Origin: an uncultured Acidobacteriota bacterium
GTDB lineage: Bacteria; Acidobacteriota; Vicinamibacteria; Fen-336
Assembly (NCBI GenBank): GCA_964561785.1
Contig: CAZLRF010000014.1
Span: forward strand, 25,816 to 89,815
Length of the DNA stretch: 64,000 bases
Direction: 5' to 3'
How positions within the stretch are numbered: position 1 is the first letter of the stretch; the number at the start of each line of letters is the position of its first letter. The notes under the pieces are model-generated. The model saw only the letters and a list, made by a program, of their open reading frames with translations, ran no database searches and had not been told where the DNA came from. Below, piece after piece: positions 26,893 to 41,837 of this stretch. A program made the translations under genes and the position numbers.

Positions 26893-28299
26893 TTGCGAGG
26901 GATGCCTTCCGCGACCGGCACCGACGCGCGCCGACTCCTCCCCTCCGTGGACCAGGCGCTCCTGCGACCCGAGGTGAGGGAGCTCGTGGTCGCGCACGGG
27001 CGCGCGGCGGTCGTGCTCGCGCTGCGGGCCGCGCTCGAGGCGCTGCGGGAGCGCGCCTCCGCCTCCCCCGCCGGCCTCGAGGGGGCGCTCGCCGAGCTGG
27101 GCGCCGACGTCCGGGCCCGCCTCCTCGCCGCCGCCCGTCCGTCGCTGCGCCGGGTGATCAACGCCACCGGCGTCGTCGTCCACACGAACCTGGGCCGCGC
27201 CCCGCTCTCGCCGGAGGCCGCGGCCCGCGTGGCCGAGGTGGCCTCCTCCTACTCGAACCTCGAGTACGACCTCGAGCGGGGACGACGGGGCGACCGGGAG
27301 GCCCACGCGGAGAGGCGGCTTCGCGAGCTGCTCGGCGTCGAGGCCACGGTCGTGGTCAACAACTGCGCGGCCGCGGTCCTGCTCGCGGTGAACACCCTCG
27401 CGGAGGGGCGAGAGGTCCTCGTGAGCCGGGGGGAGCTCGTCGAGATCGGGGGGTCCTTCCGCATCCCGGACGTCCTGTGCAAGGGCGGGGCACGGCTGCG
27501 CGAGGTGGGCACCACCAACCGGACGCGCCTCGCGGACTACCGCGCCGCGCTCTCGGACCAGACGGGGATGATCCTGAAGGTCCACCCGAGCAACTTCCGC
27601 ATCGTGGGCTTCACCGAGCAGCCGTCCGACGAAGAGCTCTCGGCCCTCGCGCGGGAGGCGGGCGTGCCCCTCGTCGAGGACCAGGGGAGCGGCCTCTTCG
27701 ATCCGCTCCCCGGCCCCCTCGCCGCGGAGGCGACCGTGAGGCAGGCCCTGCGCGGCGGGGCCGACGCCTTGACCTTCTCGGGGGACAAGCTCCTCGGGGG
27801 GCCGCAGGCCGGGCTCGTGGCCGGACGGGAGGCGATCGTCGCCCGCATGCGCAAGAACCCGCTCTACCGGGCGCTGCGGGTCGACAAGATGACGCTCGCC
27901 GCCCTCGACGCGACGCTCGTCGAGCACGAGGCGGGCCGGGCGGGCGAGCGGGTGCCGGTGCTGCGGATGCTCCACGCCCCGCTCGACACGGTGCGCGCGC
28001 GAGCGGCGGCCTTCGCCCGCGCCCTCGAGGCGGAGGCGCCCGCCCTGCGGCCGACGCTGCAGGACGCGGAGTCCGCGGTGGGGGGGGGGGCCTCGCCGCA
28101 GGTCGGCGTCCCCACCGTGCTGGTGGCCCTCGACGCCTCTCCCGCGGGCCCCGACCGCCTGGCCGCCGCCCTGCGCCGCGGCGAGCCGCCGGTCGTCGTG
28201 CGCGTGGCGGAGGACCGCGTCCTCCTCGACCTCAGAACCGTGCTCCCGGACGAGGAACGCCTGCTCCTCGCCGCCCTCGCGGCCCCCGGGCGGGGATGA
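26893..28299 (+). CDS. selA: L-seryl-tRNA(Sec) selenium transferase
   Basis: 468 aa; ...RVINATGVVVHTNLGRAPLS..., PLP-lysine region FSGDKLLGGPQAGLVAG; typical SelA length. Confidence 0.9.
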   Translation: MRGMPSATGTDARRLLPSVDQALLRPEVRELVVAHGRAAVVLALRAALEALRERASASPAGLEGALAELGADVRARLLAAARPSLRRVINATGVVVHTNLGRAPLSPEAAARVAEVASSYSNLEYDLERGRRGDREAHAERRLRELLGVEATVVVNNCAAAVLLAVNTLAEGREVLVSRGELVEIGGSFRIPDVLCKGGARLREVGTTNRTRLADYRAALSDQTGMILKVHPSNFRIVGFTEQPSDEELSALAREAGVPLVEDQGSGLFDPLPGPLAAEATVRQALRGGADALTFSGDKLLGGPQAGLVAGREAIVARMRKNPLYRALRVDKMTLAALDATLVEHEAGRAGERVPVLRMLHAPLDTVRARAAAFARALEAEAPALRPTLQDAESAVGGGASPQVGVPTVLVALDASPAGPDRLAAALRRGEPPVVVRVAEDRVLLDLRTVLPDEERLLLAALAAPGRG

Positions 28300-29204
28300 G
28301 GACGGCGGCCGCGCTCCGGGCGCTCCCTCTCGCCGCCGCGCTTCTGCCGCTCGCGTGGTCCGCCCCCGCCCGGGCGGAAGAGGTCGTGCGGCGGGTGGGG
28401 AGCGTGACGTTCCGGGTCGACGTCTCGCAGGCCTTTCCCGGCGGCGTCGTCGCGATCCGCCTCGGCTCGCGCGTGCGGCTCGGCGGCGCGTGGGCCGTGC
28501 TCGAGGGCCGCCGTGCACCGTTTCTCCCCGTTCGCGGCGTCCCGCGCGCGCTCGTGCCGATCTCCGCGGCGGCCGAGCCCGGGCCGGTCACCCTCGGCGT
28601 CGAGATCGCGGCCCGGGGCGGCACCCAGCGCATCGGGATCCCGATCACCCTCGGCACGCGCGCCTACCCCCCGCGGACGATCGTTCTCGACGAGCGGCTC
28701 CGCGCCCTCGCCGGGCGCGAGGACGCCGCCCACGACGGCCGCCGGCTCCTCGCCCTCCTGCGCGCCGCCCCGACGAAGGCGGAGCCCGGTCCCCTCCTGC
28801 CGCCCGTGGACGCTCCCGGGCGCGGCTTCGGCGAGCCCCGAATCCATCCCGGCGCCTCCCGCGTCTTGAGCCTCACCGACGGCCTCCACGGCGAGCGCCA
28901 CCGCGGGATCGACTACCCGGTTCCCGCGGCGACCCCCGTGCGCGCGCCCGGCACGGGCACGGTGCTGTTCGCGGGCCCGCTGGTGCTGACCGGGGAGACG
29001 GTGGTCATCGACCACGGCCAGGGCGTCGTGAGCGTCCTCTCCCACCTCTCGCGCGCCGACGTGCGCACGGGCGACGCCGTCCCCGCCGCCGCGCCGATCG
29101 GCCTCTCCGGCCAGACCGGCCTCGCCCCCGAGCCCCTCCTCGAGTGGCGGGTCTACCTCCACGCCGTCCCCGTCGACCCCACCGTCCTCGCCCCGCTCCT
29201 GTAA
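28296..29204 (+). CDS. M23-family peptidoglycan metalloendopeptidase
   Basis: Internal start MRTAAALRALPLAAALLPLAWSAPARAEE (signal peptide) overlapping the selA stop by ATGA; C-terminal LytM motifs HRGIDYPVPAATPVRAPGTGTV...GETVVIDHGQGVVSVLSHLS. Confidence 0.85.
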   Translation: MRTAAALRALPLAAALLPLAWSAPARAEEVVRRVGSVTFRVDVSQAFPGGVVAIRLGSRVRLGGAWAVLEGRRAPFLPVRGVPRALVPISAAAEPGPVTLGVEIAARGGTQRIGIPITLGTRAYPPRTIVLDERLRALAGREDAAHDGRRLLALLRAAPTKAEPGPLLPPVDAPGRGFGEPRIHPGASRVLSLTDGLHGERHRGIDYPVPAATPVRAPGTGTVLFAGPLVLTGETVVIDHGQGVVSVLSHLSRADVRTGDAVPAAAPIGLSGQTGLAPEPLLEWRVYLHAVPVDPTVLAPLL

Positions 29205-29247: not shown

Positions 29248-32200
29248 TCACCGCGTCCCGGCGGAGGGCTCGAGGACGACGGTCAGCGGGACGCGCTCGG
29301 CCGAGCGAACGATCGCCGTCGCCTTGCCCCGTCCGCTCTCGTGGCCGACGGCGACCTCGACCCGGCCCGGGGGCGAGGCGAGGTCGAACCGGCCTTCCGC
29401 GTCGGTCGGGCCGGACGTGCGGCCGGGCAGCCGCACCCGCGCCCCGTCCACCGACTCGACCCGCGGATAGGCCCCGGCCACCGGACGGCCTGACGGGTCG
29501 ACCACGCGCAAGGCGATGCGCCCCGCCGGCCTCAGCGTGAGGGCAGCCGGCTCGCCGCCGGGGACGACGCCGAACCGCACGCCGAAGCCGGCGACCTCGG
29601 AGCCCGCCACGACGGCGTAGGGGCGCGCGGCGAGGCCGCCGATCCGGAAGGTCCCGTCCGCCGTGGAGTTCGCGTGCCCGCCGCTCGTCCCGTCATCGGC
29701 CGTGGCGAGCACGAGGTGGCCGGGCGCGGGGCGCCCCGCCGCGTCGAGCACGCGGCCGGCGATCTCGAGGCCGGCCTCCATCTCGACCTTGAGGTCGGCC
29801 ATGCCGCCGGTGCCGACGCTCAGCGGCATCTCCACCGGCCGGCGGTCCGGGGCTCGCGCGACGAGGCGGTACTCCCCCGGCTCGACCGGGATCGTGAAGC
29901 GGCCGTCGGGTGAGGTCTCCGCCCCGCCGCCGGCGCCGCGGCCCGGCGGCGACGCCTCGGGGCGCAGAGACACGCGGACGCCGCCCAACGGCGCCCCGGT
30001 GTCCCGCTCGACGACGACGCCCGCGACGGTGGTCGAGGCGATCTCGAGGTCGAGCGCGAACCGCTCGACGTCGGGGACGTCGGTCTCGCGGCCGCCGAAG
30101 GACTGGGCGCCCCGTCTCATCTGGACGAAGTGCGGGCCCGGCGCGAAGACGAGCAGCTCGTAGCCGCCGTCCTCGCGGGTCACGGCGGCGAGAGGGGGCG
30201 GCCCCGTGGACGCGGCGGAGGCCGGGGAAGCTCCCATGAATACCGAGACCGAGCTCCCGCGCCGGCTCATCAGGCCGACGAGGACGCCGGCCTCGCCTTC
30301 GCCGCCGCGGGTCACACGCCCCGCCACCACGACGTCGCGCAACGCGAAGTCGACGGTCACGGCCTCGCCGTCGCGCACCTCCACCTCGCGCGAGTCGACG
30401 CCGGTCAGGACGGTCGCCCCGGCCCCGCCCGCGGCCATGGGGCTCGCCGGCGTGAAGGCCATGAGCGCGACGCTCACGCGGCCCGGGGGCACGCGGTCCA
30501 GGACGAACGCCCCGCCCGCGTCGAGGGCGCCCTGTCCCCACTCCCCGACGGAGCCGCGGTCGTCGAGCGGCCATGCCTGGACGCGTCCCGCGGTGAACGG
30601 CCGGCCGTCGCGGTGCACCGCGCGCCCCTCGATCCGCCCGCCGCGCACGAGGACGATCCTCACCGCGGGCGTCTCCCTCTCGGGGTCGACCGCCACCTCG
30701 ACGGGAGGGGACGCGGCGTAGGAGGGGTGGCGCGCGGTCAGGAACGTCGCCCCGGTGGGAAGGCCGCGCAGCTCGAACGCCCCGCTCGATCCGGTCTGCG
30801 TCTCGCGCCGCCCCGTGCGGACGTTCGCCTCCCGCTCCGCGGCGACCGTCGCCCCCGGGACGCCGCGCCCCTCGCCGTCGACCACCACGCCCTCCACGAC
30901 GCCGCCGCGGGCGAGGACGACCGTCCCCACGTCGGTCGCGCGCCCGGCGGCGACCCGCACGCCGGCCCGCGAGGCTTCCCCGCGGTCTCCCGCCCGCACC
31001 TCGAGGTCGTAGCGGCCGGGAGGCACGTCGCGCAGGGCGAACCGGCCGTCCCCCTCGTCCGAGCGGCCTGACGCGACCCGCCAGCGCTCGGTCCCGGACT
31101 CGTCCCGGGCCGTGACCTGCGCGTCCTCGACCGGCGCGCCGGACTCGTCCGCCACCCGTCCGGTCAGGGTCCCTCCCTCGTCGAGGACGACCTCGATCTC
31201 CTCGCCGCCGGCCTCCGCCACCGCGCGGCCCGTCGCGTAGCCCGTCGCGCTCGCCGTCACCTCGTAGCGCCCCGGCCGCAGCCCGCCGATCTCGAAGCGG
31301 CCTGCGGCCCCGCTCTCCGCCTCGCCCTCCCCCGCCGCGCCCGGACCCAGGGTCGTCGCCCGGACCGCGGCGGCCTCGACGCCGCGTCCCTCGCGGTCCC
31401 GCACGCGCCCGCGGATCGCGAGGCCCGGGTCGAGGGCCACGTCGCCGAGGTCGACCGCCCGCCCCCGCGCCGAGACGCCCGCCTCCACCCGCCGCGACGC
31501 ATGCCGCGGGGCGGAGACCGTGACCTCGAGCGACCCGAGGGGCAGCGGGCCGAGAGCGAAGGCGCCGTCCGCGCCCGCCGCCGCGACGAGCATGTCGGAG
31601 GCGAAGGGCGGCAGGGCCTTGCCCTCGTACTCCTCGACCCGCGCGCGGCCGGCGAGAGGCCTGCCCTCGGCGTCGACGATCCGCCCCGTGACGAAGCCCC
31701 CGTCCGAGAGGACCAGGCTCGCCGAGGCCTCGCCGAGCGGCTCGACCACGACGACCGCGATCCCCGGCGCCCGCCCCCCTTCGCGGGCCACGAGCGTGTA
31801 CTCCCCGGGCGCAACGCCGGCCATCACGAACCGCCCGCTCTCGTCGGTCCGCTCGGGGGCGGGCGCCTCCCAGGCCGTGTCCCCCTGCGCCCGCACGAGG
31901 GCGCCCCGTACGGGACGACCGGCGTCGTCGCGGACCGATCCCGAGAGGGTCGCCCCCGGGAAGAGATAGAGCTCCACGCTCGACCCCGCGCGGACGCCCG
32001 AGCGCGTCGCGCGCGCGTAGCCGGGGGCCCGCACGGAGAGCCGCACCGCCGCGCGCCCGATCCCCTCGAGGCGGAAGCGCCCCTCCGCGTCCGTCACCGC
32101 CTCAGGGTGCACCGGGTCGGCGCCCCCGACCGCGAGGGACGGCACGTCCGACTCGACCACGACCCGGGCCCCCGCGACGGGCCGGCCCCCGTCACCCTCG

Positions 32201-32649
32201 CGCACGACGCCGGCGATCACCCCGCCCCGCTCGAGCCGAACGCGCAGCGGCCCCGAGGCGACCCGCCGGACGGGCGCGGTCACGAAGCCCTTCGCCGACA
32301 CCCACGCGTTCCACGGCCCGGGCGGCAGCGCCTCGAGGCGGACCCGGCCGTCCGCGGAGGTGAACCCGGTGCGGGCCTTCTCGGGCGCGATCTCCCCGCC
32401 CGGCCGGTAGGCGCCGGTCACCGGCGCCACGGCCACGAACGCGCCTTCCACGGGCCGGCCCGCCGGGTCGACCACGAGCACGTCGAGCCGAGTGGGCGGG
32501 CTCGGCGCAGAGGGGCGCGCCTTCGCCGCAGGCCCCGGGGCGGGGGGCGGCACGCTCTTCGAGGCCGGGGGCGCCTGGGCGACGGCGAGGGCGGCGAGGC
32601 CCGCGGCGAGCGCGCCGAGGAGCGCCGGGTGTCGGGGGCGAAGGCTCAT
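29248..32649 (-). CDS. Secreted 1133-aa protein of about 12 tandem carboxypeptidase-regulatory-like / prealbumin-like beta-sandwich domains
   Basis: Internal start MSLRPRHPALLGALAAGLAALAVAQAPPASK (signal peptide) at residue 455 of ORF 29248..34011. Then a repeated unit of about 80-90 aa (G.V.D..G.PV.GA.V......G..........DG.F.L..L.PG.Y.L.V.A.G). The upstream part of the ORF is antisense to nuoN. Confidence 0.75.
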   Translation of the reverse strand: MSLRPRHPALLGALAAGLAALAVAQAPPASKSVPPPAPGPAAKARPSAPSPPTRLDVLVVDPAGRPVEGAFVAVAPVTGAYRPGGEIAPEKARTGFTSADGRVRLEALPPGPWNAWVSAKGFVTAPVRRVASGPLRVRLERGGVIAGVVREGDGGRPVAGARVVVESDVPSLAVGGADPVHPEAVTDAEGRFRLEGIGRAAVRLSVRAPGYARATRSGVRAGSSVELYLFPGATLSGSVRDDAGRPVRGALVRAQGDTAWEAPAPERTDESGRFVMAGVAPGEYTLVAREGGRAPGIAVVVVEPLGEASASLVLSDGGFVTGRIVDAEGRPLAGRARVEEYEGKALPPFASDMLVAAAGADGAFALGPLPLGSLEVTVSAPRHASRRVEAGVSARGRAVDLGDVALDPGLAIRGRVRDREGRGVEAAAVRATTLGPGAAGEGEAESGAAGRFEIGGLRPGRYEVTASATGYATGRAVAEAGGEEIEVVLDEGGTLTGRVADESGAPVEDAQVTARDESGTERWRVASGRSDEGDGRFALRDVPPGRYDLEVRAGDRGEASRAGVRVAAGRATDVGTVVLARGGVVEGVVVDGEGRGVPGATVAAEREANVRTGRRETQTGSSGAFELRGLPTGATFLTARHPSYAASPPVEVAVDPERETPAVRIVLVRGGRIEGRAVHRDGRPFTAGRVQAWPLDDRGSVGEWGQGALDAGGAFVLDRVPPGRVSVALMAFTPASPMAAGGAGATVLTGVDSREVEVRDGEAVTVDFALRDVVVAGRVTRGGEGEAGVLVGLMSRRGSSVSVFMGASPASAASTGPPPLAAVTREDGGYELLVFAPGPHFVQMRRGAQSFGGRETDVPDVERFALDLEIASTTVAGVVVERDTGAPLGGVRVSLRPEASPPGRGAGGGAETSPDGRFTIPVEPGEYRLVARAPDRRPVEMPLSVGTGGMADLKVEMEAGLEIAGRVLDAAGRPAPGHLVLATADDGTSGGHANSTADGTFRIGGLAARPYAVVAGSEVAGFGVRFGVVPGGEPAALTLRPAGRIALRVVDPSGRPVAGAYPRVESVDGARVRLPGRTSGPTDAEGRFDLASPPGRVEVAVGHESGRGKATAIVRSAERVPLTVVLEPSAGTR

Positions 32650-32714: not shown

Positions 32715-34169
32715 TCAGGGCAGCAGGCTGCGCGCGGCCAGGCGGGCGAGGCTCAGGACGGGAGCCGGCCACACCCCGAGGAGAAGCGTGAGCGCGGCGG
32801 CGACGGCAAGCGCGAACGCCGAAGCCGGCGCGGGGGCGGCCCAGCGGTCCTCTCCCGCCGGCTCGCACATGTACATGGCGACCACCACCCGGAGATAGTA
32901 ATAGGCCGAGACGACGCTCATCACCACCCCGACGAGGGCGAGGACCCACCAGCCGGCGGCGACGGCCGCCGCGAACAGGTAGAACTTGCCGACGAAGCCG
33001 GCGGTGACCGGGATCCCCGTGAGGGACACGAGAAAGACGGCGAAGGCGGCGGCGAGAGCGGGGCGGCGCTCGGAGAGGCCGGCCACGTCGCGAGCGGTGA
33101 CCGGCTCGCGGCCGTCGCGGGCGAGCGTGGCGATCACGCCGAAGGCGCCGAGGTTCACCGCCGCGTAGGCCGCGAGGTAGAAGAGCATCGCCTCGCCGGC
33201 GAGGGAGGGCACGGCCACCATCGCCGCGAGGAGGTAGCCCGCGTGCGCCACCGAGGAGTAGGCGAGCATCCGCTTGAGGCTCGTCTGGGCGAGGGCGGCG
33301 AGATTGCCGACGACCATCGTCACGATCGCGAGGACGGCCACGAGGGGCTGCCAGAGGGGAGCGAGCGCGGGGAGCCCCGAGCCGAAGACGCGCAGGAGCG
33401 AGCCGAACGCCGCCGCCTTCACCCCCGCCGACATGAACGCGGTCGCGGTGGTCGGCGCGCCCTCGTAGACGTCGGGGGCCCACATGTGGAAGGGCACGCT
33501 CGCGATCTTGAAGGCGAAGCCGACCAGGAGGAGCCCGGCCCCGAGGAGGGCGAGGGGGACCTGCGGCGCGGGGAGGGCGGCGAGGGCCAGGGCGACCTTG
33601 TCGATCGAGGTGCTGCCGCTCACGCCGTAGAGGAGGGCGATCCCGTACAGGAAGAAGGCGGAGGCGAAGGCCCCGGTCACGAAGTACTTGAGCGCCGCCT
33701 CCTGGCTCTCGACGCGGCCGCGGTGCATGCCCGCCATCCCGTAGAGCGCGATCGACGTGATCTCGAGGGCCACGAACACGGAGACGAGCTCGAGCGCGGA
33801 GACGAGGCCGAGCATCCCCACCGTCGAGAACAGGAGCAGCGCGTAGAACTCGCCGCGCTCGATCCCCTGCGAGCGCAGGTAGGAGGGCGAGAGCAGCACC
33901 GCCACCGCCGCGACGGCGACGAGGAGGGCCTGGAGGAAGAGGGCGAAGTCGTCCGCGGCCACGGCGCCCGCCATCACCGCGCCCCGCCCGGGCCCGGTGG
34001 CGAGCATCCACAGCGACGCGAGCGCGGCGGCGAGGCCGGCGAGCGAGAGCGCGGTCGAGGGGGCGGCCTTGCCCTTCGGGACGAAGGCCTGGGCGAGGAG
34101 GACGACGAGCCCGGTCACGGCGACGATCGCGGCGGGGGCGATCGGGCGCAGGTCGAGGACCGCGTTCAT
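32715..34169 (-). CDS. nuoN: NADH-quinone oxidoreductase subunit N
   Basis: Internal start MNAVLDLRPIAPAAIVAVTGLVVLL...; 484 aa, about 14 TM helices, NuoN/ND2 motifs (FHMWAPDVYEGAPT, LAYSSVAHAGY). Confidence 0.9.
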   Translation of the reverse strand: MNAVLDLRPIAPAAIVAVTGLVVLLAQAFVPKGKAAPSTALSLAGLAAALASLWMLATGPGRGAVMAGAVAADDFALFLQALLVAVAAVAVLLSPSYLRSQGIERGEFYALLLFSTVGMLGLVSALELVSVFVALEITSIALYGMAGMHRGRVESQEAALKYFVTGAFASAFFLYGIALLYGVSGSTSIDKVALALAALPAPQVPLALLGAGLLLVGFAFKIASVPFHMWAPDVYEGAPTTATAFMSAGVKAAAFGSLLRVFGSGLPALAPLWQPLVAVLAIVTMVVGNLAALAQTSLKRMLAYSSVAHAGYLLAAMVAVPSLAGEAMLFYLAAYAAVNLGAFGVIATLARDGREPVTARDVAGLSERRPALAAAFAVFLVSLTGIPVTAGFVGKFYLFAAAVAAGWWVLALVGVVMSVVSAYYYLRVVVAMYMCEPAGEDRWAAPAPASAFALAVAAALTLLLGVWPAPVLSLARLAARSLLP

Positions 34170-35701
34170 CGCCGCACCTCCGCGCCCAGGGCCGGCGGGG
34201 CGTCCGCCGCTCGCACCGGCTGCGTCCGCTCGCGCACCTGGCGCACGAGGGCGTCGGCCGCGGGCTCGATCCGCCGCGTGAACAGCGGGCTCGCCACGCC
34301 CATGAAGAGGGCGAGCGCCACCAGGGGGACGAGGACGGTCGCCTCGCGGAGCGAGAGGTCGGGGAGGTCCCGGTTCTTCGGGTTCGTGACCTCGCCGTAG
34401 AACACCCGCTTCACCATCCACAGCACGTAGCCCGCGGCCAGGATCACCCCGAGCGAGGCCACGGCGACCATCCACGGGCTGAACGTCCACGAGCCGACGA
34501 GGATGAGGAACTCGCCCACGAAGCCGTTGAAGCCGGGCACCGCGATCGAGGACAGGCTGATCAGGAGGAAGACCGCGAAGAACCAGGGCATGACCGTCCT
34601 GAGCCCCCCGAACTCCGCGATCTGCCGGGTGTGGCGGCGGTCGTAGAGCATCCCCACCAGGAAGAAGAGCGCCCCGGTCGAGATGCCGTGGTTGAGCATC
34701 TGGTAGACCGAGCCGACGACCCCGGTGGTGGTGAAGGCGGCGATCCCGAGCATCACGAAGCCGAGGTGTGAGACCGAGGAGTAGGCGACGAGCTTCTTGA
34801 GGTCGGGCTGGACGAGCGAGACGAGCGCCCCGTAGACGATGCCGACGACGGCGAGGACGCCGACGAGCGGTGCGAAGTGCATCGCGGCGTCCGGGAAGAG
34901 GGGGATCGCCAGCCGGAGGAACCCGTAGCCCCCCATCTTGAGCAGGACGCCGGCGAGGATGACGGAGCCCGCGGTGGGCGCCTCGACGTGGGCGTCGGGG
35001 AGCCAGGTGTGGAACGGCCACATCGGGACCTTGATCGCGAACGCGAGGGCGCAGGCGAGGAAGAGCCAGGTCTGGAGCGAGGGGTCGACCGGGACCTCCA
35101 CGAGGCGCGGGATGTCGAACGTGCCGATGCCCGCCGCGCTGTAGAGCACGAGGAACGCGACCAGCATGAGGACGCTGCCCGCGAACGTGTAGAGGAAGAA
35201 CTTGACCGCGGCGTACACCCGCCGCTCGTGGCCCCAGATCCCGATCAGGAAGTACATCGGGATGAGCATCGCCTCCCAGAACACGTAGAACAGGAACAGG
35301 TCGAGGGCCACGAACACCCCGATCATCCCCGCCTCGAGCAGCAGCATGAACAGCACGAACTCCCGCACCCGCGTCTCGATCGAGCTCCACGAGCCGAGCA
35401 GGCACAGCGGGGTGAGGAAGGTGGTCAGGATCACGAGCCACAGCGACAGCCCGTCGATCCCGACGTGGTAGCTGATGCCCCACGCGGGGATCCACGGGCG
35501 CTTCTCGATGAACTGCATCCCGGCCACGTCGCGGAAGCCGGACACGAGGAGAAGCGACAGCGCGAAGGCGGCGAGGGACACCGCGAGGCCGATCGCCTTC
35601 TGCAGCGTGCGCGACTCGCGCCGGGTGAGGGCGACGAGGAGCGCCCCCGCGACGGGCAGGAGGATCAGCAGGCTCAGCAGGTGGAACTTGAGGGCGATCA
35701 T
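34166..35701 (-). CDS. nuoM: NADH-quinone oxidoreductase subunit M
   Basis: Internal start MIALKFHLLSLLILLPVAGALL...; 511 aa; ND4 motifs (FYVFWEAMLIPMYFLIGIWG, WLPDAHVEAPTAGSVILAGVLLKMGGYG, LAYSSVSHLGFV); ATGA overlap with nuoN. Confidence 0.9.
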   Translation of the reverse strand: MIALKFHLLSLLILLPVAGALLVALTRRESRTLQKAIGLAVSLAAFALSLLLVSGFRDVAGMQFIEKRPWIPAWGISYHVGIDGLSLWLVILTTFLTPLCLLGSWSSIETRVREFVLFMLLLEAGMIGVFVALDLFLFYVFWEAMLIPMYFLIGIWGHERRVYAAVKFFLYTFAGSVLMLVAFLVLYSAAGIGTFDIPRLVEVPVDPSLQTWLFLACALAFAIKVPMWPFHTWLPDAHVEAPTAGSVILAGVLLKMGGYGFLRLAIPLFPDAAMHFAPLVGVLAVVGIVYGALVSLVQPDLKKLVAYSSVSHLGFVMLGIAAFTTTGVVGSVYQMLNHGISTGALFFLVGMLYDRRHTRQIAEFGGLRTVMPWFFAVFLLISLSSIAVPGFNGFVGEFLILVGSWTFSPWMVAVASLGVILAAGYVLWMVKRVFYGEVTNPKNRDLPDLSLREATVLVPLVALALFMGVASPLFTRRIEPAADALVRQVRERTQPVRAADAPPALGAEVRR

Positions 35702-35709
35702 GGCGTCGC

Positions 35710-37662
35710 TCAGGACCAGAGGAGGTAGGAGACGAGGGCGACCGCGCCGGCGAGGACGAGCAGCGCGTAGTGGCGGACGAACCCGGTCTGGATCGGCCGC
35801 GTGCGCTCGGCCCACCCCGCGGCCGTCCGCCCCGCGCCGTTGACGAGGCCGTCGATGACACCCGCGTCGACGCGCTTCCACAGGAGCCGGTCGCTGCCCT
35901 CCACCACCACCCTGCGGACGAAGCCGTCGTAGACGTGGTCGAAGAAGTACTTGGCCCCGAACAGGCGCAGGGCGGGGGCGAGGGGCCGCGCGAGCGAGCC
36001 GCGCACGTCGGGCATCGAGAGGTAGAGGTACCAGGCGACGAGGAGCCCCAGCGCGCCGGCGAGGGTGGCCACGACGGGCAGCCACGCCACGTGGTGGGCG
36101 GGCTCCGCGCCCAGGCGGAACACGGGCTCGAGGACCCCGGGGAGCCTCACCCGCGAGCCGCCCGGACCCGGGAAGAGCTCGTAGCCGGCCACCACCGAGC
36201 CCGCGGCGAGGAGGACGAGCGGCCCGAGCATCGACCACGGCGACTCGTGCACGTGGTGCTCGGCCTCGTGGCCGCCCCGGAACTCGCCGAAGAACGTGAG
36301 GAAGAGGAGCCGTCCCATGTAGGCCGCGGTCAGCAGGGCCGTGACGAGGGCGAGGGCGAAGAGGACCGTGTGCCCCCGCCCGAGGGCGGCGAGGAGGATC
36401 TCGTCCTTGCTGTAGAAGCCGGACAGGAGCGGGATGCCGGCGATGGCGAGGGTACCCACGAGGAAGGTCCCGAACGTCCAGGGGATCTTCTTCCGCAGCC
36501 CGCCCATCTTCCGCATGTCCTGCTCGCCGGACATCGCGTGGATGACCGAGCCCGAGCCGAGGAACAGCAGCGCCTTGAAGAAGGCGTGGGTGTACAGGTG
36601 GAACACCGCCACCCCGAACGCGCCCGCCCCCGCGGCGAGGAACATGAAGCCGAGCTGGCTGACCGTCGAGTACGCCAGCACCCGCTTGATGTCGGTCTGG
36701 ACGATCGCGATCGTGCCCGCCACGAGGGCGGTGACCGTGCCCGTGACCGCCACCACCAGCATCGCCGTCTCGGACTGGTGGTAGAGCGGGCCGAGGCGCG
36801 CCACCATGTAGACCCCGGCGGTGACCATGGTCGCGGCGTGGATGAGGGCGGAGACCGGGGTCGGGCCCTCCATCGCGTCCGGGAGCCAGACGTGGAGCGG
36901 GATCTGCGCGCTCTTGCCCGTCGCGCCGACGAAGAGGAGCAGGCAGGCGATCGTCACCGGGCCCCACTGCCACAGCCCCTCGTGGGCGAGCGCGCCGGCG
37001 TTGTCGGCGATGTCGACGAGGTCGAGGCTGCCGAACGCGTGGAAGACGAAGATCATCCCCAGGATGAGGCCGGCGTCCCCGACCCGGTTCACCACGAAGG
37101 CCTTCAGGCCGGCCGCCGACGCGCTGTCCCGCTTGTACCAGAAGCCGATCAGCAGGTAGGAGCACAGCCCCACCCCCTCCCACCCCACGAACAGCAGCGG
37201 GAGGTTGCCGCCGAGCACCAGCAGCAGCATGAAGAACGTGAACAGGTTCATGTACGAGAAGAAGCGGACCCGGTCCTCGTCGTGGGCCATGTAGCCCAGC
37301 GAGTAGACGTGGATGAGCGAGCCGATCCCGGTGACCACGAGCATCATCACGCAGGAGAGCGGGTCGACGAGCAGGCTCATCGGGACGCGGAAGCCGCCCG
37401 CCTCCATCCACTCGAAACCCAGGTAGGGCTGGGAGAAGCGCAGCCCCTCCTCCCCCGCCACGAGCCCGTAGAGGCGCGCGGTGGTCCACGCGGCGAGGAC
37501 GAAGGCGCCGATCACGGTGGCGCAGGCGAGGTAGCCCGCCCCCGCGTCCTCCTTGTCCCGCTTGATCCACTCTCCGAACAGCGAGAGGACCACGAAGCCC
37601 CCGAGGGGCAGGAGGAGCACGGCGAAGGGCAGGACGCGGTCGAGGACCTCGAGCTCGGTCAC
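35710..37662 (-). CDS. nuoL: NADH-quinone oxidoreductase subunit L
   Basis: 650 aa; ND5 motifs (WEGVGLCSYLLIGFW, HVWLPDAMEGPTPVSALIHAATMVTAGVY, LAYSTVSQLGFM) and a long C-terminal amphipathic region. Confidence 0.92.
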   Translation of the reverse strand: MTELEVLDRVLPFAVLLLPLGGFVVLSLFGEWIKRDKEDAGAGYLACATVIGAFVLAAWTTARLYGLVAGEEGLRFSQPYLGFEWMEAGGFRVPMSLLVDPLSCVMMLVVTGIGSLIHVYSLGYMAHDEDRVRFFSYMNLFTFFMLLLVLGGNLPLLFVGWEGVGLCSYLLIGFWYKRDSASAAGLKAFVVNRVGDAGLILGMIFVFHAFGSLDLVDIADNAGALAHEGLWQWGPVTIACLLLFVGATGKSAQIPLHVWLPDAMEGPTPVSALIHAATMVTAGVYMVARLGPLYHQSETAMLVVAVTGTVTALVAGTIAIVQTDIKRVLAYSTVSQLGFMFLAAGAGAFGVAVFHLYTHAFFKALLFLGSGSVIHAMSGEQDMRKMGGLRKKIPWTFGTFLVGTLAIAGIPLLSGFYSKDEILLAALGRGHTVLFALALVTALLTAAYMGRLLFLTFFGEFRGGHEAEHHVHESPWSMLGPLVLLAAGSVVAGYELFPGPGGSRVRLPGVLEPVFRLGAEPAHHVAWLPVVATLAGALGLLVAWYLYLSMPDVRGSLARPLAPALRLFGAKYFFDHVYDGFVRRVVVEGSDRLLWKRVDAGVIDGLVNGAGRTAAGWAERTRPIQTGFVRHYALLVLAGAVALVSYLLWS

Positions 37663-37666
37663 GGGC

Positions 37667-37984
37667 CTACCCCTTCAGCAGGTTGAAGGCGTCCACGTCC
37701 AGCGTGTCCTTGTGCCGGTGGAGCGCGATGACGATGGCGAGGCCGACCGCGGCCTCGGCCGCGGCGACCACCATCACGAAGAACACGAGCACCTGGCCGT
37801 CGAGCGTCCCCGCCGCGCGGCTGAACGCCACGAAGGCGAGGTTGACCCCGTTGAGCATGAGCTCGACGCACATGAGGACGGTGATCACGTTGCGGCGGAG
37901 GAAGACGCCGAGGGTCCCGAGGCCGAACAGCACGAGGCTCAGCAGGACCGCGTGGTGGACGAAGGCGGGTTGGTCCATGGCCAT
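37667..37984 (-). CDS. nuoK: NADH-quinone oxidoreductase subunit K
   Basis: 105 aa, [54 protein letters not shown]...; ATG overlaps the nuoJ TGA (TGATG). The upstream 171 codons of ORF 37667..38497 are spurious. Confidence 0.88.
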
Positions 37985-38472
37985 CACAGCTCCTTCTTGG
38001 CCAGCGCCACCGCCCCGACGAGGGCGGCCAGGATGAGGATCGACGTGGCCTCGAAGGCGTAGAGGAAGTGAGGCGAGAACAGGATCGCGGCCATGCTCCG
38101 GGTCGAGGCGTCGAAGGACGCGGCCGCCCCCTTCTCGCTGCGCAGGAGGACCGCCCCCGCCTGCAGCACCATGAGCGTCACGAGGGCGAGAGCGATCCCC
38201 CGCAGGGTGCGCCCGCCGCGGGCCGGGGAGTCCTCCCTCCTCACGTCGAGGAGCATGAGCACGAAGAGGAAGAGCACCATGATCGCACCCGCGTAGACGA
38301 TCACCTGGAGCACGGCGATGAACGGGGAGCCGAGCAGGCCGAAGATGACGCTGAGCGAGCACAGGGTCACGATGAGGGCGAAGGCCGAGTACATCGGGTG
38401 CTTCTGGGCGATCACGACCACCGCGGAGACGACCGCGATCGCGGCGAACACGTAGAAGAGGATGGCGTCCAT
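37984..38472 (-). CDS. nuoJ: NADH-quinone oxidoreductase subunit J
   Basis: Internal start [71 protein letters not shown]...; 162 aa. Confidence 0.88.
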
Positions 38473-38474
38473 GG

Positions 38475-39536
38475 TCACCGCCCCGCGAGGGCGACACCGG
38501 TGGCGGTGATCAGGATCCACACCGCGGCCACCGGGATGAGCACCTTCCAGCCGATGTGCATCAGCTGGTCGTAGCGGAAGCGGGGAAGCGTGCCCCGCAG
38601 CCAGATGAAGACGAAGAGGAGAGTCGAGACCTTGGCTCCCCACCACACGAAGCCGAGGAGGCCCTCGGCGGGCAGGCCCGGCACGCCCGCGTGCCAGCCG
38701 CCGAGGAAGAGGTTCGTGGCCAGCACGGACACCGTGATCATGTTGATGTACTCCGCCATCTGCAGGAGGGCGAAGCGCATCGAGGAGTACTCGGTGTGGA
38801 AGCCGGCCACGAGCTCGGCCTCGGCCTCGGGGAGATCGAACGGGATGCGCGCGACCTCGGCGGTGGCGGCGATCATGTAGACGAGGAAGGCGGGGAGCTG
38901 CACGAAGGCGTTCCACCGCCAGAACCAGCCGGACTGGGCGTTCACGATGTCGGCGATCTGGAACGAGCCCGCGAGCATGATGATGCCGACCCAGCTGAGG
39001 CCGAGGGCGATCTCGTAGCTGAACATCTGGGCGGAGGAGCGCAGCCCGCCGAGCAGCGCGTACTTGTTGTTGGCGGACCAGCCGGCCAGCACGATGCCGT
39101 ACACGCCGAGGGCGGTGACCGCGAAGATGAAGAGGAGCCCGACGTCGATCGAGGCGATCTGGATCTGGACGGAGCGGCCGCGCAGCCACTCCGGGAGGAT
39201 GCCCCACCCGGGCAGGGTGAACGGCGGGCCGTAGGGCAGCACCGCCACCGCGAGGAGGGCCGTGGTCACCGCCACCACCGGGGCGGCGAGGAAGCCCCAC
39301 TTGTTGGCGGCGGCCGGCATCACCTCCTCCTTGAAGAAGAGCTTGATGCCGTCGGCGATGGGCTGGAGGATCCCGAGCGGCCCGGTGCGGTTCGGGCCGA
39401 GCCGGTACTGCATGAAGGCGAGCGTGCGCCGCTCGATCCAGGTCATGAGGGAGAACAGCCCGAGCAGCGCGCCCACGACGAGAGCGATCTTGGCGACGGC
39501 GAGGACCACCTCCTGGACGGCCGGGGAGGGGCTCAT
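38475..39536 (-). CDS. nuoH: NADH-quinone oxidoreductase subunit H
   Basis: Internal start [22 protein letters not shown]...; 353 aa; ND1 motifs ([58 protein letters not shown]). It abuts nuoJ directly, so there is no nuoI between them. Confidence 0.9.
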
Positions 39537-41347
39537 GCGACGACCCCGCTCTTGGCGAGGGCCTCCTCGAAGGTGGGTGCGACCGACTTCCAGCACCTCT
39601 TCTCGCGCACGTGGTACTCGAACTCGGCCCGGAACTTCTTGAGCGTCGACTGCGGCGGGGCGACCGCGGCGTCGCCGAAGGGGCAGACGGTGTGGCCGGC
39701 GATCGAGTCGGTCAGCTTGAACAGGAGGTCGAGGTCGGACATCTGCGCCTCCCCCGCCTCGATCCGCTCGAGCAGGCGCAGCATCCAGCCGGTCCCCTCG
39801 CGGCAGGGCGAGCACTTGCCGCACGACTCGTGCTTGTAGAAGTAGATGAGGTTCTTCGCCATCCACACCATGCACGTCGAGTCGTCCATCACGATCGTGC
39901 CGGCGGAGCCGAGCATCGAGCCCGCCTTCGCCACCCCGTCGAAGTCCATCGCGCAGTCGATCTCGGAGGCGGTGAGAACCGGGGTCGAGGAGCCGCCGGG
40001 CACCACCGCCTTGAGCTTGCGCCCGCCGCGGATGCCCTGGGCGTAGCCCTCCCCGAAGATCAGGTCGCGCAGGGTGATCCGGCCCATCGGCGCCTCGTAG
40101 CTGCCGGGGCGGACCACGTGGCCGCTGATCGAGTACAGCTTCGGCCCCCCGTTCTTCTCGGTCCCGTAGCTCGCGAACCACTCGGCCCCCCGCTCGAGGA
40201 TGAGGGGCACGTTCACGAGGGTCTCGACGTTGTTGACGATCGTCGGGCAGCCGTACAGCCCCACCACCGCCGGGAAGGGCGGCTTGATCCGGGGCTGCCC
40301 GCGCTTGCCCTCGAGCGACTCGATGAGGGCCGTCTCCTCCCCGCACTCGTAGGCGCCCGCGCCCCGGTGGACGTGGATCTCCACGTCGACGCCGGTGCCG
40401 AGGATGTTCTTCCCGACGTAGCCCTTCGCCCGCGCCTCGGCGAGGGCGCGCTCCAGCGTCCGCGCCCCCTCGTGGAACTCGCCCCGGATGTAGATGTAGG
40501 CGGCCTGCGAGCGGATCGCGTGGCAGCTCACCACGGTGGCCTCGATCAGCCGGTGGGGGTCGCGCTCGATGATCACCCGGTCCTTGTAGGTCCCCGGCTC
40601 GCTCTCGTCGGCGTTGACGCAGAGGTAGCGCGGCTTCGGGTTGTCCTTGGGAAGGAAGCCCCACTTCATCCCGGTCGGGAAGCCGGCCCCGCCCCGGCCG
40701 CGGAGGTTCGACCTCTTGACCGTCTCGACGATCTCCTCCGGCGCGAGCCTCAACCACTCGGCGAGCCTCGAGTAGCCTCCCGACGCCTCGTACACGGCGA
40801 TCGAGGTCGAGCCCTCCTTCCAGACGTTGGCGAACAGGATGTGCTCGCCGGGGCTCTTGGGCCACTCGAAGCGGCGGCGGACCGTCTCCCCCGCGATCAC
40901 CTTGTCGATGTCGCCCGCGGTCGCGTGCTCGAGCCACTCGCCGTTCACCTGCACCGCGGGGGCGCCGCCGCAGGCGGCGAGGCATTCGACGGTCTTGACC
41001 GTGAACTTCTCGTCGGGCGTCGTGCCCCCCGGCTTCACCCCGAGGCGCCTGCAGGTGTGCTCGAGGAGCTCCTGCGCGCCGCCGAGCGAGCACGAGAGGG
41101 TGGTGCAGATCTCGATGAGGGTCTTCCCCTCCGGCTTCAGCCGGAACATCGTGTAGAAGCTCGCGGTGTCGTGGACCTGCGCGGGCGAGAGGTCGAGCAG
41201 CTCCGCCACGTGCTCGATCGCCTCGCGGCTGATGAAGCCCTCCTGCTCCTGCACGATGTGCAGCGCCGGCAGCAGCGCCGAGCGCTTGACCGGGTAGCGC
41301 TTCACGATCTCGTCGAAACGGGCCTTGTTCTCGGGAGAGAGCTGCAT
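39533..41347 (-). CDS. nuoEF: Fused NuoE-NuoF NADH dehydrogenase subunit (N-terminal 24-kDa thioredoxin-like [2Fe-2S] domain plus 51-kDa FMN/NADH/[4Fe-4S] domain)
   Basis: 604 aa. Residues about 1-165 are NuoE-like with the Cys quartet (ICTTLSC ... ECLAACGGAP). The rest is NuoF: RGRGGAGFPTGMKWGF (NADH/FMN site), YLCVNADESEPGTYKDRVIIE, and the [4Fe-4S] motif ESCGKCSPCREGTGW. No nuoG follows. Confidence 0.85.
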   Translation of the reverse strand: MQLSPENKARFDEIVKRYPVKRSALLPALHIVQEQEGFISREAIEHVAELLDLSPAQVHDTASFYTMFRLKPEGKTLIEICTTLSCSLGGAQELLEHTCRRLGVKPGGTTPDEKFTVKTVECLAACGGAPAVQVNGEWLEHATAGDIDKVIAGETVRRRFEWPKSPGEHILFANVWKEGSTSIAVYEASGGYSRLAEWLRLAPEEIVETVKRSNLRGRGGAGFPTGMKWGFLPKDNPKPRYLCVNADESEPGTYKDRVIIERDPHRLIEATVVSCHAIRSQAAYIYIRGEFHEGARTLERALAEARAKGYVGKNILGTGVDVEIHVHRGAGAYECGEETALIESLEGKRGQPRIKPPFPAVVGLYGCPTIVNNVETLVNVPLILERGAEWFASYGTEKNGGPKLYSISGHVVRPGSYEAPMGRITLRDLIFGEGYAQGIRGGRKLKAVVPGGSSTPVLTASEIDCAMDFDGVAKAGSMLGSAGTIVMDDSTCMVWMAKNLIYFYKHESCGKCSPCREGTGWMLRLLERIEAGEAQMSDLDLLFKLTDSIAGHTVCPFGDAAVAPPQSTLKKFRAEFEYHVREKRCWKSVAPTFEEALAKSGVVA

Positions 41348-41360
41348 CGTGTGGTCCTGC

Positions 41361-41711
41361 CTACCAGTCGAGGGCGCCCGACTTCCACGCGTAGACGAAG
41401 CCGCCCCCGAGCAGCGTCATGAAGACGCCCATCTCGACCAGGCCGAAGAGGCCGAGGTCCCTGAAGACGAGCGCCCACGGGTAGAGGAAGGCGGCGTCCA
41501 CGTCGAGGAGGATGAAGATCATGCACACCAGGTAGAACTTGATCGGGAAGCGCTCCCGGGCGGTGCCCACCGGCGGCATGCCGCACTCGTAGGTGCTGAG
41601 CTTCGTCTCGCTCGGGCGGGGGCGCCCGAGCAGGTGTGACATGAAGAGGGTGAAGACGCCGAAGCCGAGCGCGACCGCACCCAGGATCAGTATCGGGGCA
41701 TAGCTGGGCAT
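41361..41711 (-). CDS. nuoA: NADH-quinone oxidoreductase subunit A
   Basis: Internal start MPSYAPILILGAVALGFGVFTLFMSHLLGRPRPSETKLSTYECGMPPVGTARERFPIKFYLVCMIFILLDVDAAFLYPWALVFRDLGLFGLVEMGVFMTLLGGGFVYAWKSGALDW; 116 aa, three TM helices, ND3 signature. Confidence 0.88.
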   Translation of the reverse strand: MPSYAPILILGAVALGFGVFTLFMSHLLGRPRPSETKLSTYECGMPPVGTARERFPIKFYLVCMIFILLDVDAAFLYPWALVFRDLGLFGLVEMGVFMTLLGGGFVYAWKSGALDW

Positions 41712-41837
41712 GAGATCCGGGGACCGCCGCAAGACCGCAAGGCGGTGAGCCGGGGCACTATAGCTTTCGGTCGAACGGGGTGTCAACGCTCGCATCCCTC
41801 GGCGCTCCGGCCCGCGGCGAGCGCCGAGGGAATCGGC

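Follow-up and report, generated by a model that had tools for sequence, protein, structure and literature searches.

A cluster of eight genes on the minus strand, nuoA-nuoEF-nuoH-J-K-L-M-N, occupies positions 32715-41711 of a 64-kb stretch of DNA (64,000 nucleotides, hereafter the window) from contig CAZLRF010000014.1 of an uncultured Acidobacteriota bacterium. It encodes the membrane arm and the flavoprotein of respiratory complex I, the proton-pumping NADH:quinone oxidoreductase, and lacks nuoB, nuoC, nuoD, nuoG and nuoI. We consider it likely that these products belong to a canonical complex I whose NuoB, C, D, G and I subunits are encoded elsewhere in the genome. We infer the presence of the five genes in trans as well as the function of the complete enzyme, and the locus is most probably unusual in the arrangement of its genes and not in the kind of enzyme that they encode. 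An earlier note on this DNA had offered two options, a second locus supplying the five subunits or a non-canonical assembly of flavoprotein and membrane arm. The first is favored because the encoded subunits are canonical, because intermediate clusters exist that lack only B and I or only G and I, and because Terriglobia carry nuoB and nuoI on other scaffolds; the second is very unlikely.

Gene content and encoded subunits

Genes were called on the window by frame analysis of the G+C content at third codon positions (GC3) together with start and stop mapping, and the calls were compared with those of the Joint Genome Institute (JGI). GC3 is near 1.0 in the coding frames, and the reading frames are therefore unambiguous. 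The independent JGI calls on an identical metagenome contig (L001) agree with ours in starts and stops. The DNA is chromosomal, with a G+C content of 66-79% per 2-kb segment and ~73% overall, and also encodes ribosomal proteins, an intein-bearing DnaB and SelA. Each of the eight genes falls into the expected Nuo family in Pfam and NCBIfam, with E-values of 1e-31 to 1e-226. The gene set and strand given in the earlier note are thus confirmed by frame analysis, JGI calls and family assignment alike, and all eight proteins are, by these assignments, genuine Nuo subunits. In the order of transcription, the genes are as follows (aa, amino acids; FMN, flavin mononucleotide, is the cofactor of the fused protein).

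41361-41711, minus strand: nuoA, 116 aa; PF00507, E=4.5e-36; JGI call of equal length
39533-41347, minus strand: fused nuoE-nuoF, 604 aa; PF01257, PF01512, SLBB and PF10589; NADH-oxidizing flavoprotein with clusters N1a and N3
38475-39536, minus strand: nuoH, 353 aa; PF00146, E=5.8e-120
37984-38472, minus strand: nuoJ, 162 aa; PF00499, E=2.7e-34
37667-37984, minus strand: nuoK, 105 aa; PF00420, E=4.6e-31; NF004320, 116.7 bits (cut-off 57)
35710-37662, minus strand: nuoL, 650 aa; NF005141, 751.5 bits (cut-off 556); PF00662 and PF00361
34166-35701, minus strand: nuoM, 511 aa; NF004499, 610 bits (cut-off 585); TIGR01972, 632 bits
32715-34169, minus strand: nuoN, 484 aa; TIGR01770, 443.5 bits (cut-off 332.6)

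The junctions are as tight as had been claimed (gaps of at most 13 nt, or overlaps). A 13-nt gap separates nuoA from nuoEF, and gaps of 2, 4 and 8 nt lie between nuoH and nuoJ, nuoK and nuoL, and nuoL and nuoM; nuoEF and nuoH, like nuoM and nuoN, share a 4-nt ATGA overlap, and nuoJ and nuoK overlap by 1 nt. Such spacing leaves no room for a hidden gene in the cluster and, with nuoJ starting 2 nt past the nuoH stop, no space for nuoI. The claimed absence of nuoB, C, D, G and I was also borne out across the window. The best match of E. coli NuoB, NuoCD, NuoG and NuoI in a six-frame tblastn search of the 64 kb had E=0.46, and no Oxidored_q6, Complex1_30kDa, Complex1_49kDa, NuoG or NuoI domain was found by Pfam in 38 of the 42 other called genes or in the Pfam table of L001, the four small remaining genes being checked by tblastn alone. 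Neither the quinone-reducing module (Q-module; NuoB, C, D and I) nor the 75-kDa NuoG is thus encoded beside the other nuo genes, be it in the cluster, in the window or in the flanks of related loci.

The second gene encodes NuoE and NuoF as a single polypeptide, as the earlier note had stated. The NuoE-type 2Fe-2S domain (PF01257) and the NuoF domains (PF01512, SLBB and PF10589) lie in one stop-free frame, and the two parts adjoin directly in the window and in close relatives. The NuoF part reaches 610.7 bits against the equivalog model TIGR01959 (cut-off 558.65) and the NuoE part 154 bits against TIGR01958 (cut-off 142). The cysteines of N1a (C81, C86, C122 and C126) and of N3 (C509, C512, C515 and C555) are intact, and the FMN loop reads GAGAYECGEE, so that all sites of an NADH-oxidizing flavoprotein are present, here on one chain.

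All seven core subunits of the membrane arm (NuoA, H, J, K, L, M and N) were identified by Pfam, and NuoK, L, M and N, like NuoF, score above the NCBI equivalog or subfamily cut-offs. NuoK retains 13 of 13 invariant columns, and NuoH all 17 columns that are invariant in canonical NuoH from complete operons. NuoH also retains each of 18 conserved E. coli positions that were checked (E36, R37, R46, D63, E71, G134, G145, R148, E157, R209, D213, E216, E220, E228, Y229, R293, D295 and K303), which we take to be positions covered by mutagenesis of the E. coli protein; several of them presumably lie in the loops lining the quinone cavity. This cavity is formed by NuoH together with NuoB and NuoD, and NuoH docks the peripheral arm. 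The conservation of NuoH would be hard to explain without a bound Q-module and therefore argues that a Q-module still docks there. A multisubunit cation/proton antiporter of the Mrp type was considered and rejected, as NuoL, M and N fall far below the cut-offs of the Mrp models while exceeding those of the Nuo models, and NuoA, H and J are present.

Gene order in relatives and in other lineages

Homologues of NuoEF with 79-96% identity are abundant in soil metagenomes, and those with named sources come from metagenome-assembled genomes (MAGs) labeled "Vicinamibacteria bacterium" or "Acidobacteria bacterium", Vicinamibacteria being a class of the Acidobacteriota. The earlier note had proposed to look for the same gene order in related genomes, and it is conserved in all 11 further loci (L001-L005, L011, L012, L015 and L211-L213; NuoEF 73-100% identical), as far as each contig reaches, some of them ending inside the cluster. 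Pairwise ratios of nonsynonymous to synonymous substitution rates (dN/dS) lie between 0.10 and 0.38 in each of the eight genes, the most distant relatives compared being 68-79% identical; for nuoA, which is 78-87% identical in relatives, they are 0.17-0.26. Because of the conserved order, these ratios and a conserved promoter of its own (described below), the cluster is best regarded as a conserved and separately promoted operon under purifying selection, and as neither an assembly artefact nor a remnant.

A wider comparison was made by searching the fused NuoEF against one genome per species. The resulting 80 loci were annotated by tblastn with reference Nuo proteins, and each was checked for fusion of E and F. 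The following arrangements were found.

Caldilineaceae and other Chloroflexota, and the unclassified MAG L014: A-B-C-D-EF-G-H-I-J-K-L-M-N, complete; E and F fused
Candidatus Wallbacteria MAG L007 (GCA_016199905.1): A-B-C-D-EF-G-H-I, with J-K-L 5 kb downstream; E and F fused
Alphaproteobacteria: complete clusters; E and F separate
Terriglobia/Acidoferrales, ~30 loci: A-C-D-EF-G-H-J-K-L-M-N, without B and I; E and F fused
Bryobacteraceae: order as in Terriglobia, without B and I; E and F separate
Vicinamibacterales (L053, L063, L130 and others): A-B-C-D-E-F-H-J-K-L-M-N, without G and I; E and F separate
Window lineage: A-EF-H-J-K-L-M-N; E and F fused

None of the acidobacterial clusters examined encodes NuoI. 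By gene order, the cluster in the window is the end point of a series in which acidobacterial clusters lost their peripheral-arm genes step by step, and the distribution of fused and separate forms indicates that the E-F fusion has been gained and lost more than once.

Compared with the canonical nuoA-N operon of E. coli, Thermus thermophilus, Paracoccus and Mycobacterium smegmatis, the genes A, E, F, H and J-N are orthologous and stand in the same relative order, and the cofactor motifs and conserved residues are kept in the window proteins; the differences are the absence of B, C, D, G and I and the joining of E and F in one polypeptide. The closest outgroup is the Vicinamibacterales cluster of the same class, which ends in H-J-K-L-M-N as well, is likewise without G and I, and encodes a NuoF 61-64% identical to the window protein. 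It differs in having B, C and D beside nuoA, separate E and F and, often, a gene with an SIS domain between C and D. We considered whether this L053-type cluster might be a paralogue within the same genomes instead of a sister-order orthologue, and set this aside, though not rigorously, as no assemblies or contigs in common were seen and the two go by different names at NCBI (Vicinamibacteria, at class level, and the order Vicinamibacterales). The Terriglobia operons, from the same phylum, share with the window a split nuo set, the lack of nuoI between H and J and, in most loci, the fusion of E and F, whereas they keep C, D and G, and their NuoEF is ~50% identical. In the complete operons of the Wallbacteria MAG and of Caldilineaceae, the fused NuoEF has the same domain architecture and position in the gene order at ~45-50% identity, but all other subunits are encoded in cis. 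The 11-subunit clusters without nuoEFG (Campylobacter, cyanobacterial NDH-1 and archaeal Fpo) are likewise incomplete nuo clusters of a modular enzyme; they show the opposite pattern, as the Q-module is kept, the NADH module is missing and other electron donors are used.

There is published precedent for nuo genes divided between loci. Hausmann et al. (2018, ISME J, Table S2b) list nuoB and nuoI of Terriglobia MAGs on scaffolds separate from that of the nuoA-C-D-E-F-G-H-J-K-L operon, the text of the same paper speaks of "nuoACDHJKLMN operons", and a 2025 survey reports split nuo clusters in most complex I clades. No description of the A-EF-H-J-K-L-M-N arrangement, or of complex I from Vicinamibacteria, was found in the literature.

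Several other features of nuo loci were observed in the comparison. In Caldilineaceae and other Chloroflexota (L066, L068, L070-L073 and L076), a divergent cluster encoding only membrane-arm subunits, A-H-J-K-L-M, adjoins the complete operon, which suggests alternative membrane arms for one peripheral arm. An 11-gene-type nuo cluster is immediately followed on the same strand by a complete 14-gene operon in L008, L009 and L010 (soil MAGs or contigs of 63-67% GC), and in a Proteobacteria MAG (L080, JADGRD010000107.1, 4344-8882) a fused nuoEF is followed directly by nuoJ-K-L, without G, H or I between them. The gene between nuoC and nuoD in Vicinamibacterales carries an SIS_2 domain (PF13580) and is similar to phosphoheptose isomerase/DiaA proteins; it was seen at 8093-8638 in L063, at 536-1138 in L092, and in L130, L152, L153, L194 and L126. 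NuoD reads LHTGIEK in Acidobacteriota (alignment of L017-L063 and others) and in the actinobacterial-type loci matched by the nuoD pattern described below, and LHRG.EK in E. coli, the Wallbacteria MAG and Alphaproteobacteria, a usually conserved arginine being replaced by threonine in the former motif.

The missing subunits and alternative readings

If the five genes do lie elsewhere in the genome, the locus would be one self-contained transcription unit for two of the three functional parts of the enzyme, namely the entire membrane arm with its seven subunits and the fused flavoprotein that oxidizes NADH. The Fe-S and quinone-reducing part that joins the two (NuoB, C, D, G and I) would come from small separate loci, as in Terriglobia, or from another nuo cluster, and its subunits would assemble with the products of the eight genes into an L-shaped enzyme of the canonical type. 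In this enzyme, NADH would donate electrons to FMN and N3 in the fused protein, and the clusters of the trans-encoded NuoG, NuoI and NuoB would carry them on to quinone, which would be reduced at the NuoD/NuoB/NuoH interface; the transfer would power the pumping of protons by NuoH and NuoJ-N.

A number of negative results weigh against such partner genes. None of the five was found in the 64-kb window, nor within up to 10 kb (less at contig ends) around the cluster in the 11 related loci. When NuoD of the Wallbacteria MAG and of a Vicinamibacterales MAG served as queries, no protein on the long contigs that carry this NuoEF (1.46 Mb, ERZ25039533 contig_39064; 759 kb, ERZ25039555 contig_9582; 541 kb; and 435 kb) was among the best 120 matches of either, both lists being filled by closer lineages. 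The assembly GCA_035542035.1 carries the locus as well. Metagenome DNA was also scanned with a nuoD pattern (MGPQHPSTHGVLR, 19 NNS codons and LHTGIEK) in which all third codon positions are G or C, favoring a high-GC3 lineage, and which assumes that the acidobacterial-type motif is conserved in the window lineage. It matched at least 120 loci, with ~12 of Vicinamibacterales type among the matches listed and none in a context attributable to the window lineage; most of the matches listed were Actinomycetota-type operons (names in three of six clusters; C-terminus DPVMGGVDR). The NuoD searches are the main evidence against a gene set divided between loci, and they are weak evidence, because the best 120 matches were listed and the motif is assumed rather than known. 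Two kinds of candidate partner were examined and rejected. On the short contigs L092 and L126, nuoD is not preceded by nuoC and could have been an orphan, but the SIS gene lies between C and D, and nuoE follows D; the abundant soil NuoD clusters P0427 and P0344 both belong to tandem 11-gene and 14-gene operons of 63-67% GC. Vicinamibacteria could not be told apart from other high-GC taxa by the likeness of their tetranucleotide composition to that of the window.

The alternative that survives best is one in which a second nuo cluster, either complete or of the 11-subunit type, lends NuoB, C, D and I (and G) to the products of the eight-gene operon, giving two forms of complex I that differ in membrane arm or input module. 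It is a sub-case of a divided gene set and does not contradict it. Several nuo operons are often present in Acidobacteria, the Caldilineaceae membrane-arm clusters standing back to back with complete operons demonstrate that such modules exist, and tandem 11-gene and 14-gene operons occur in other MAGs. We nevertheless regard this sharing of modules as unlikely, since no second nuo cluster of the window lineage was seen and the canonical nuo loci of high GC content that metagenomes yielded are those of Actinomycetota.

It is improbable that the lineage lacks dedicated nuoB, C, D, G and I genes altogether and that the operon borrows its connecting module from another respiratory complex or docks its flavoprotein via unrelated proteins. 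Very unlikely, too, is a lineage devoid of the five subunits in which NuoEF is attached to the membrane arm, with or without unrelated proteins in between, as an NADH-oxidizing ion pump with a different electron acceptor. Such a non-canonical assembly would fit the failure to find the five genes in the NuoD homology lists (best 120 matches) or the pattern scan and the conserved absence of these genes from the cluster across the lineage. It would, however, lack an Fe-S chain from N3 to the membrane, and we know of no acceptor for N3 besides NuoG-type clusters. To our knowledge, all relatives of complex I keep homologues of NuoB, NuoD and NuoI, and none works without NuoI. The retention of all checked conserved positions in NuoH speaks against this assembly as well, as does the orthologous cluster of sister lineages, which still adjoins B, C and D, and the partner searches that seem to favor it were biased, the best 120 matches being listed.

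The earlier note had likened the fusion to the diaphorase subunits of hydrogenases and formate dehydrogenases, and NuoEF might on that account serve another enzyme of this kind and merely sit in a membrane-arm operon. An N-terminal NuoE-like domain joined to a NuoF-like domain in one chain is indeed typical of HoxF/FdsB-type subunits, two of which (PDB 7e5z_B and 5xf9_A) align almost from end to end, and selA, encoding selenocysteine synthase, is a conserved neighbor of the cluster. The likeness is not specific, however. The F domain exceeds the NuoF equivalog cut-off, and its best PDB matches are NuoF/NDUFV1 chains of complex I, at 450-460 bits versus 265-395 bits for flavoprotein structures of hydrogenase, Nfn and formate dehydrogenase. 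The HoxE and FdsG models give 111 bits, below their cut-offs of 224 and 198. Diaphorases of the HoxF/FdsB type have a different gene context, without membrane-arm genes, whereas nuoEF holds the canonical E-F position, 13 nt from nuoA and overlapping nuoH by 4 nt. Equivalent fusions also occur inside the complete nuo operons of the Wallbacteria MAG and Caldilineaceae, and Pfam analysis of the window genes revealed no hydrogenase or formate dehydrogenase gene and hence no catalytic subunit expected beside HoxF, HndC or FdsB. A diaphorase of another enzyme is therefore highly improbable. That the cluster is a decaying, non-functional remnant of a complex I operon is scarcely credible: five essential genes are missing from it, but all eight frames are intact, dN/dS is 0.10-0.38, the promoter is conserved, the genes abut closely or overlap, and no cofactor motif is lost.

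A canonical enzyme encoded at more than one locus would be an extreme case of scattered complex I genes, with five essential subunits from three ancestral operon positions supplied in trans and the eight remaining genes translationally coupled. It would raise the question of how assembly and stoichiometry are coordinated across separate transcription units. For annotation, module-completeness scores and operon-based detectors would report an "incomplete" complex I for these bacteria, which are abundant in soil. For evolutionary studies, the acidobacterial series (B and I out; G and I out; B, C, D, G and I out) offers a natural experiment on operon disintegration with repeated fusion and fission of E and F. 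The practical importance is modest and lies mostly in these two areas. A bearing on the mechanism of complex I would arise only if the missing genes were truly absent, in which case the enzyme would be a derivative with a new electron path.

Promoter, flanking genes and other features

A promoter-like site precedes the cluster.

41757..41786, minus strand: putative sigma-70-type promoter (TTGACA, 18-nt spacer, TATAGT), between the Gfo gene and nuoA

It matches 11 of 12 consensus positions and is the sole promoter-like site in 14 kb, where 0.2 sites are expected by chance. Both hexamers and a downstream CGGCTCACCGCC stretch are kept in five of seven aligned loci (the window, L002, L211, L213 and L011). 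Just downstream of the promoter, at 41740-41756 on the minus strand, lies a CGGCTCACCGCCTT.CGG stretch that is kept at homologous positions in L002, L011 and L213; it presumably belongs to the 5' leader and could have a regulatory role.

The flanking genes are as described in the earlier note, as judged by motif, domains and N-terminus. Upstream is a Gfo/Idh/MocA protein with a twin-arginine motif (DRRGFVK) for Tat secretion, and downstream a CarboxypepD_reg repeat protein of 1133 aa (29248-32649, minus strand), the N-terminus of which resembles a signal peptide. Both genes are missing in L002, L003, L211 and L213 and are therefore not part of the nuo unit; the 1133-aa gene is inserted between nuoN and an M23 peptidase gene only in the window and the identical contig L001. 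The suggestion that a single operon runs from the Gfo gene to the 1133-aa gene is consequently unlikely, given these absences and the promoter between the Gfo gene and nuoA. The outer synteny is common to most relatives with visible flanks: selA and the M23 peptidase gene (26947-29204, plus strand) neighbor nuoN in all relatives that reach that far downstream, and a pyruvate kinase gene and a DPBB gene lie upstream of the cluster in L001, L002, L211 and L213. Farther away, the dnaB gene at 7101-9710 (minus strand) is split by an intein with a LAGLIDADG homing-endonuclease domain (Pfam DnaB, DnaB_C, Intein_splicing and LAGLIDADG_3).

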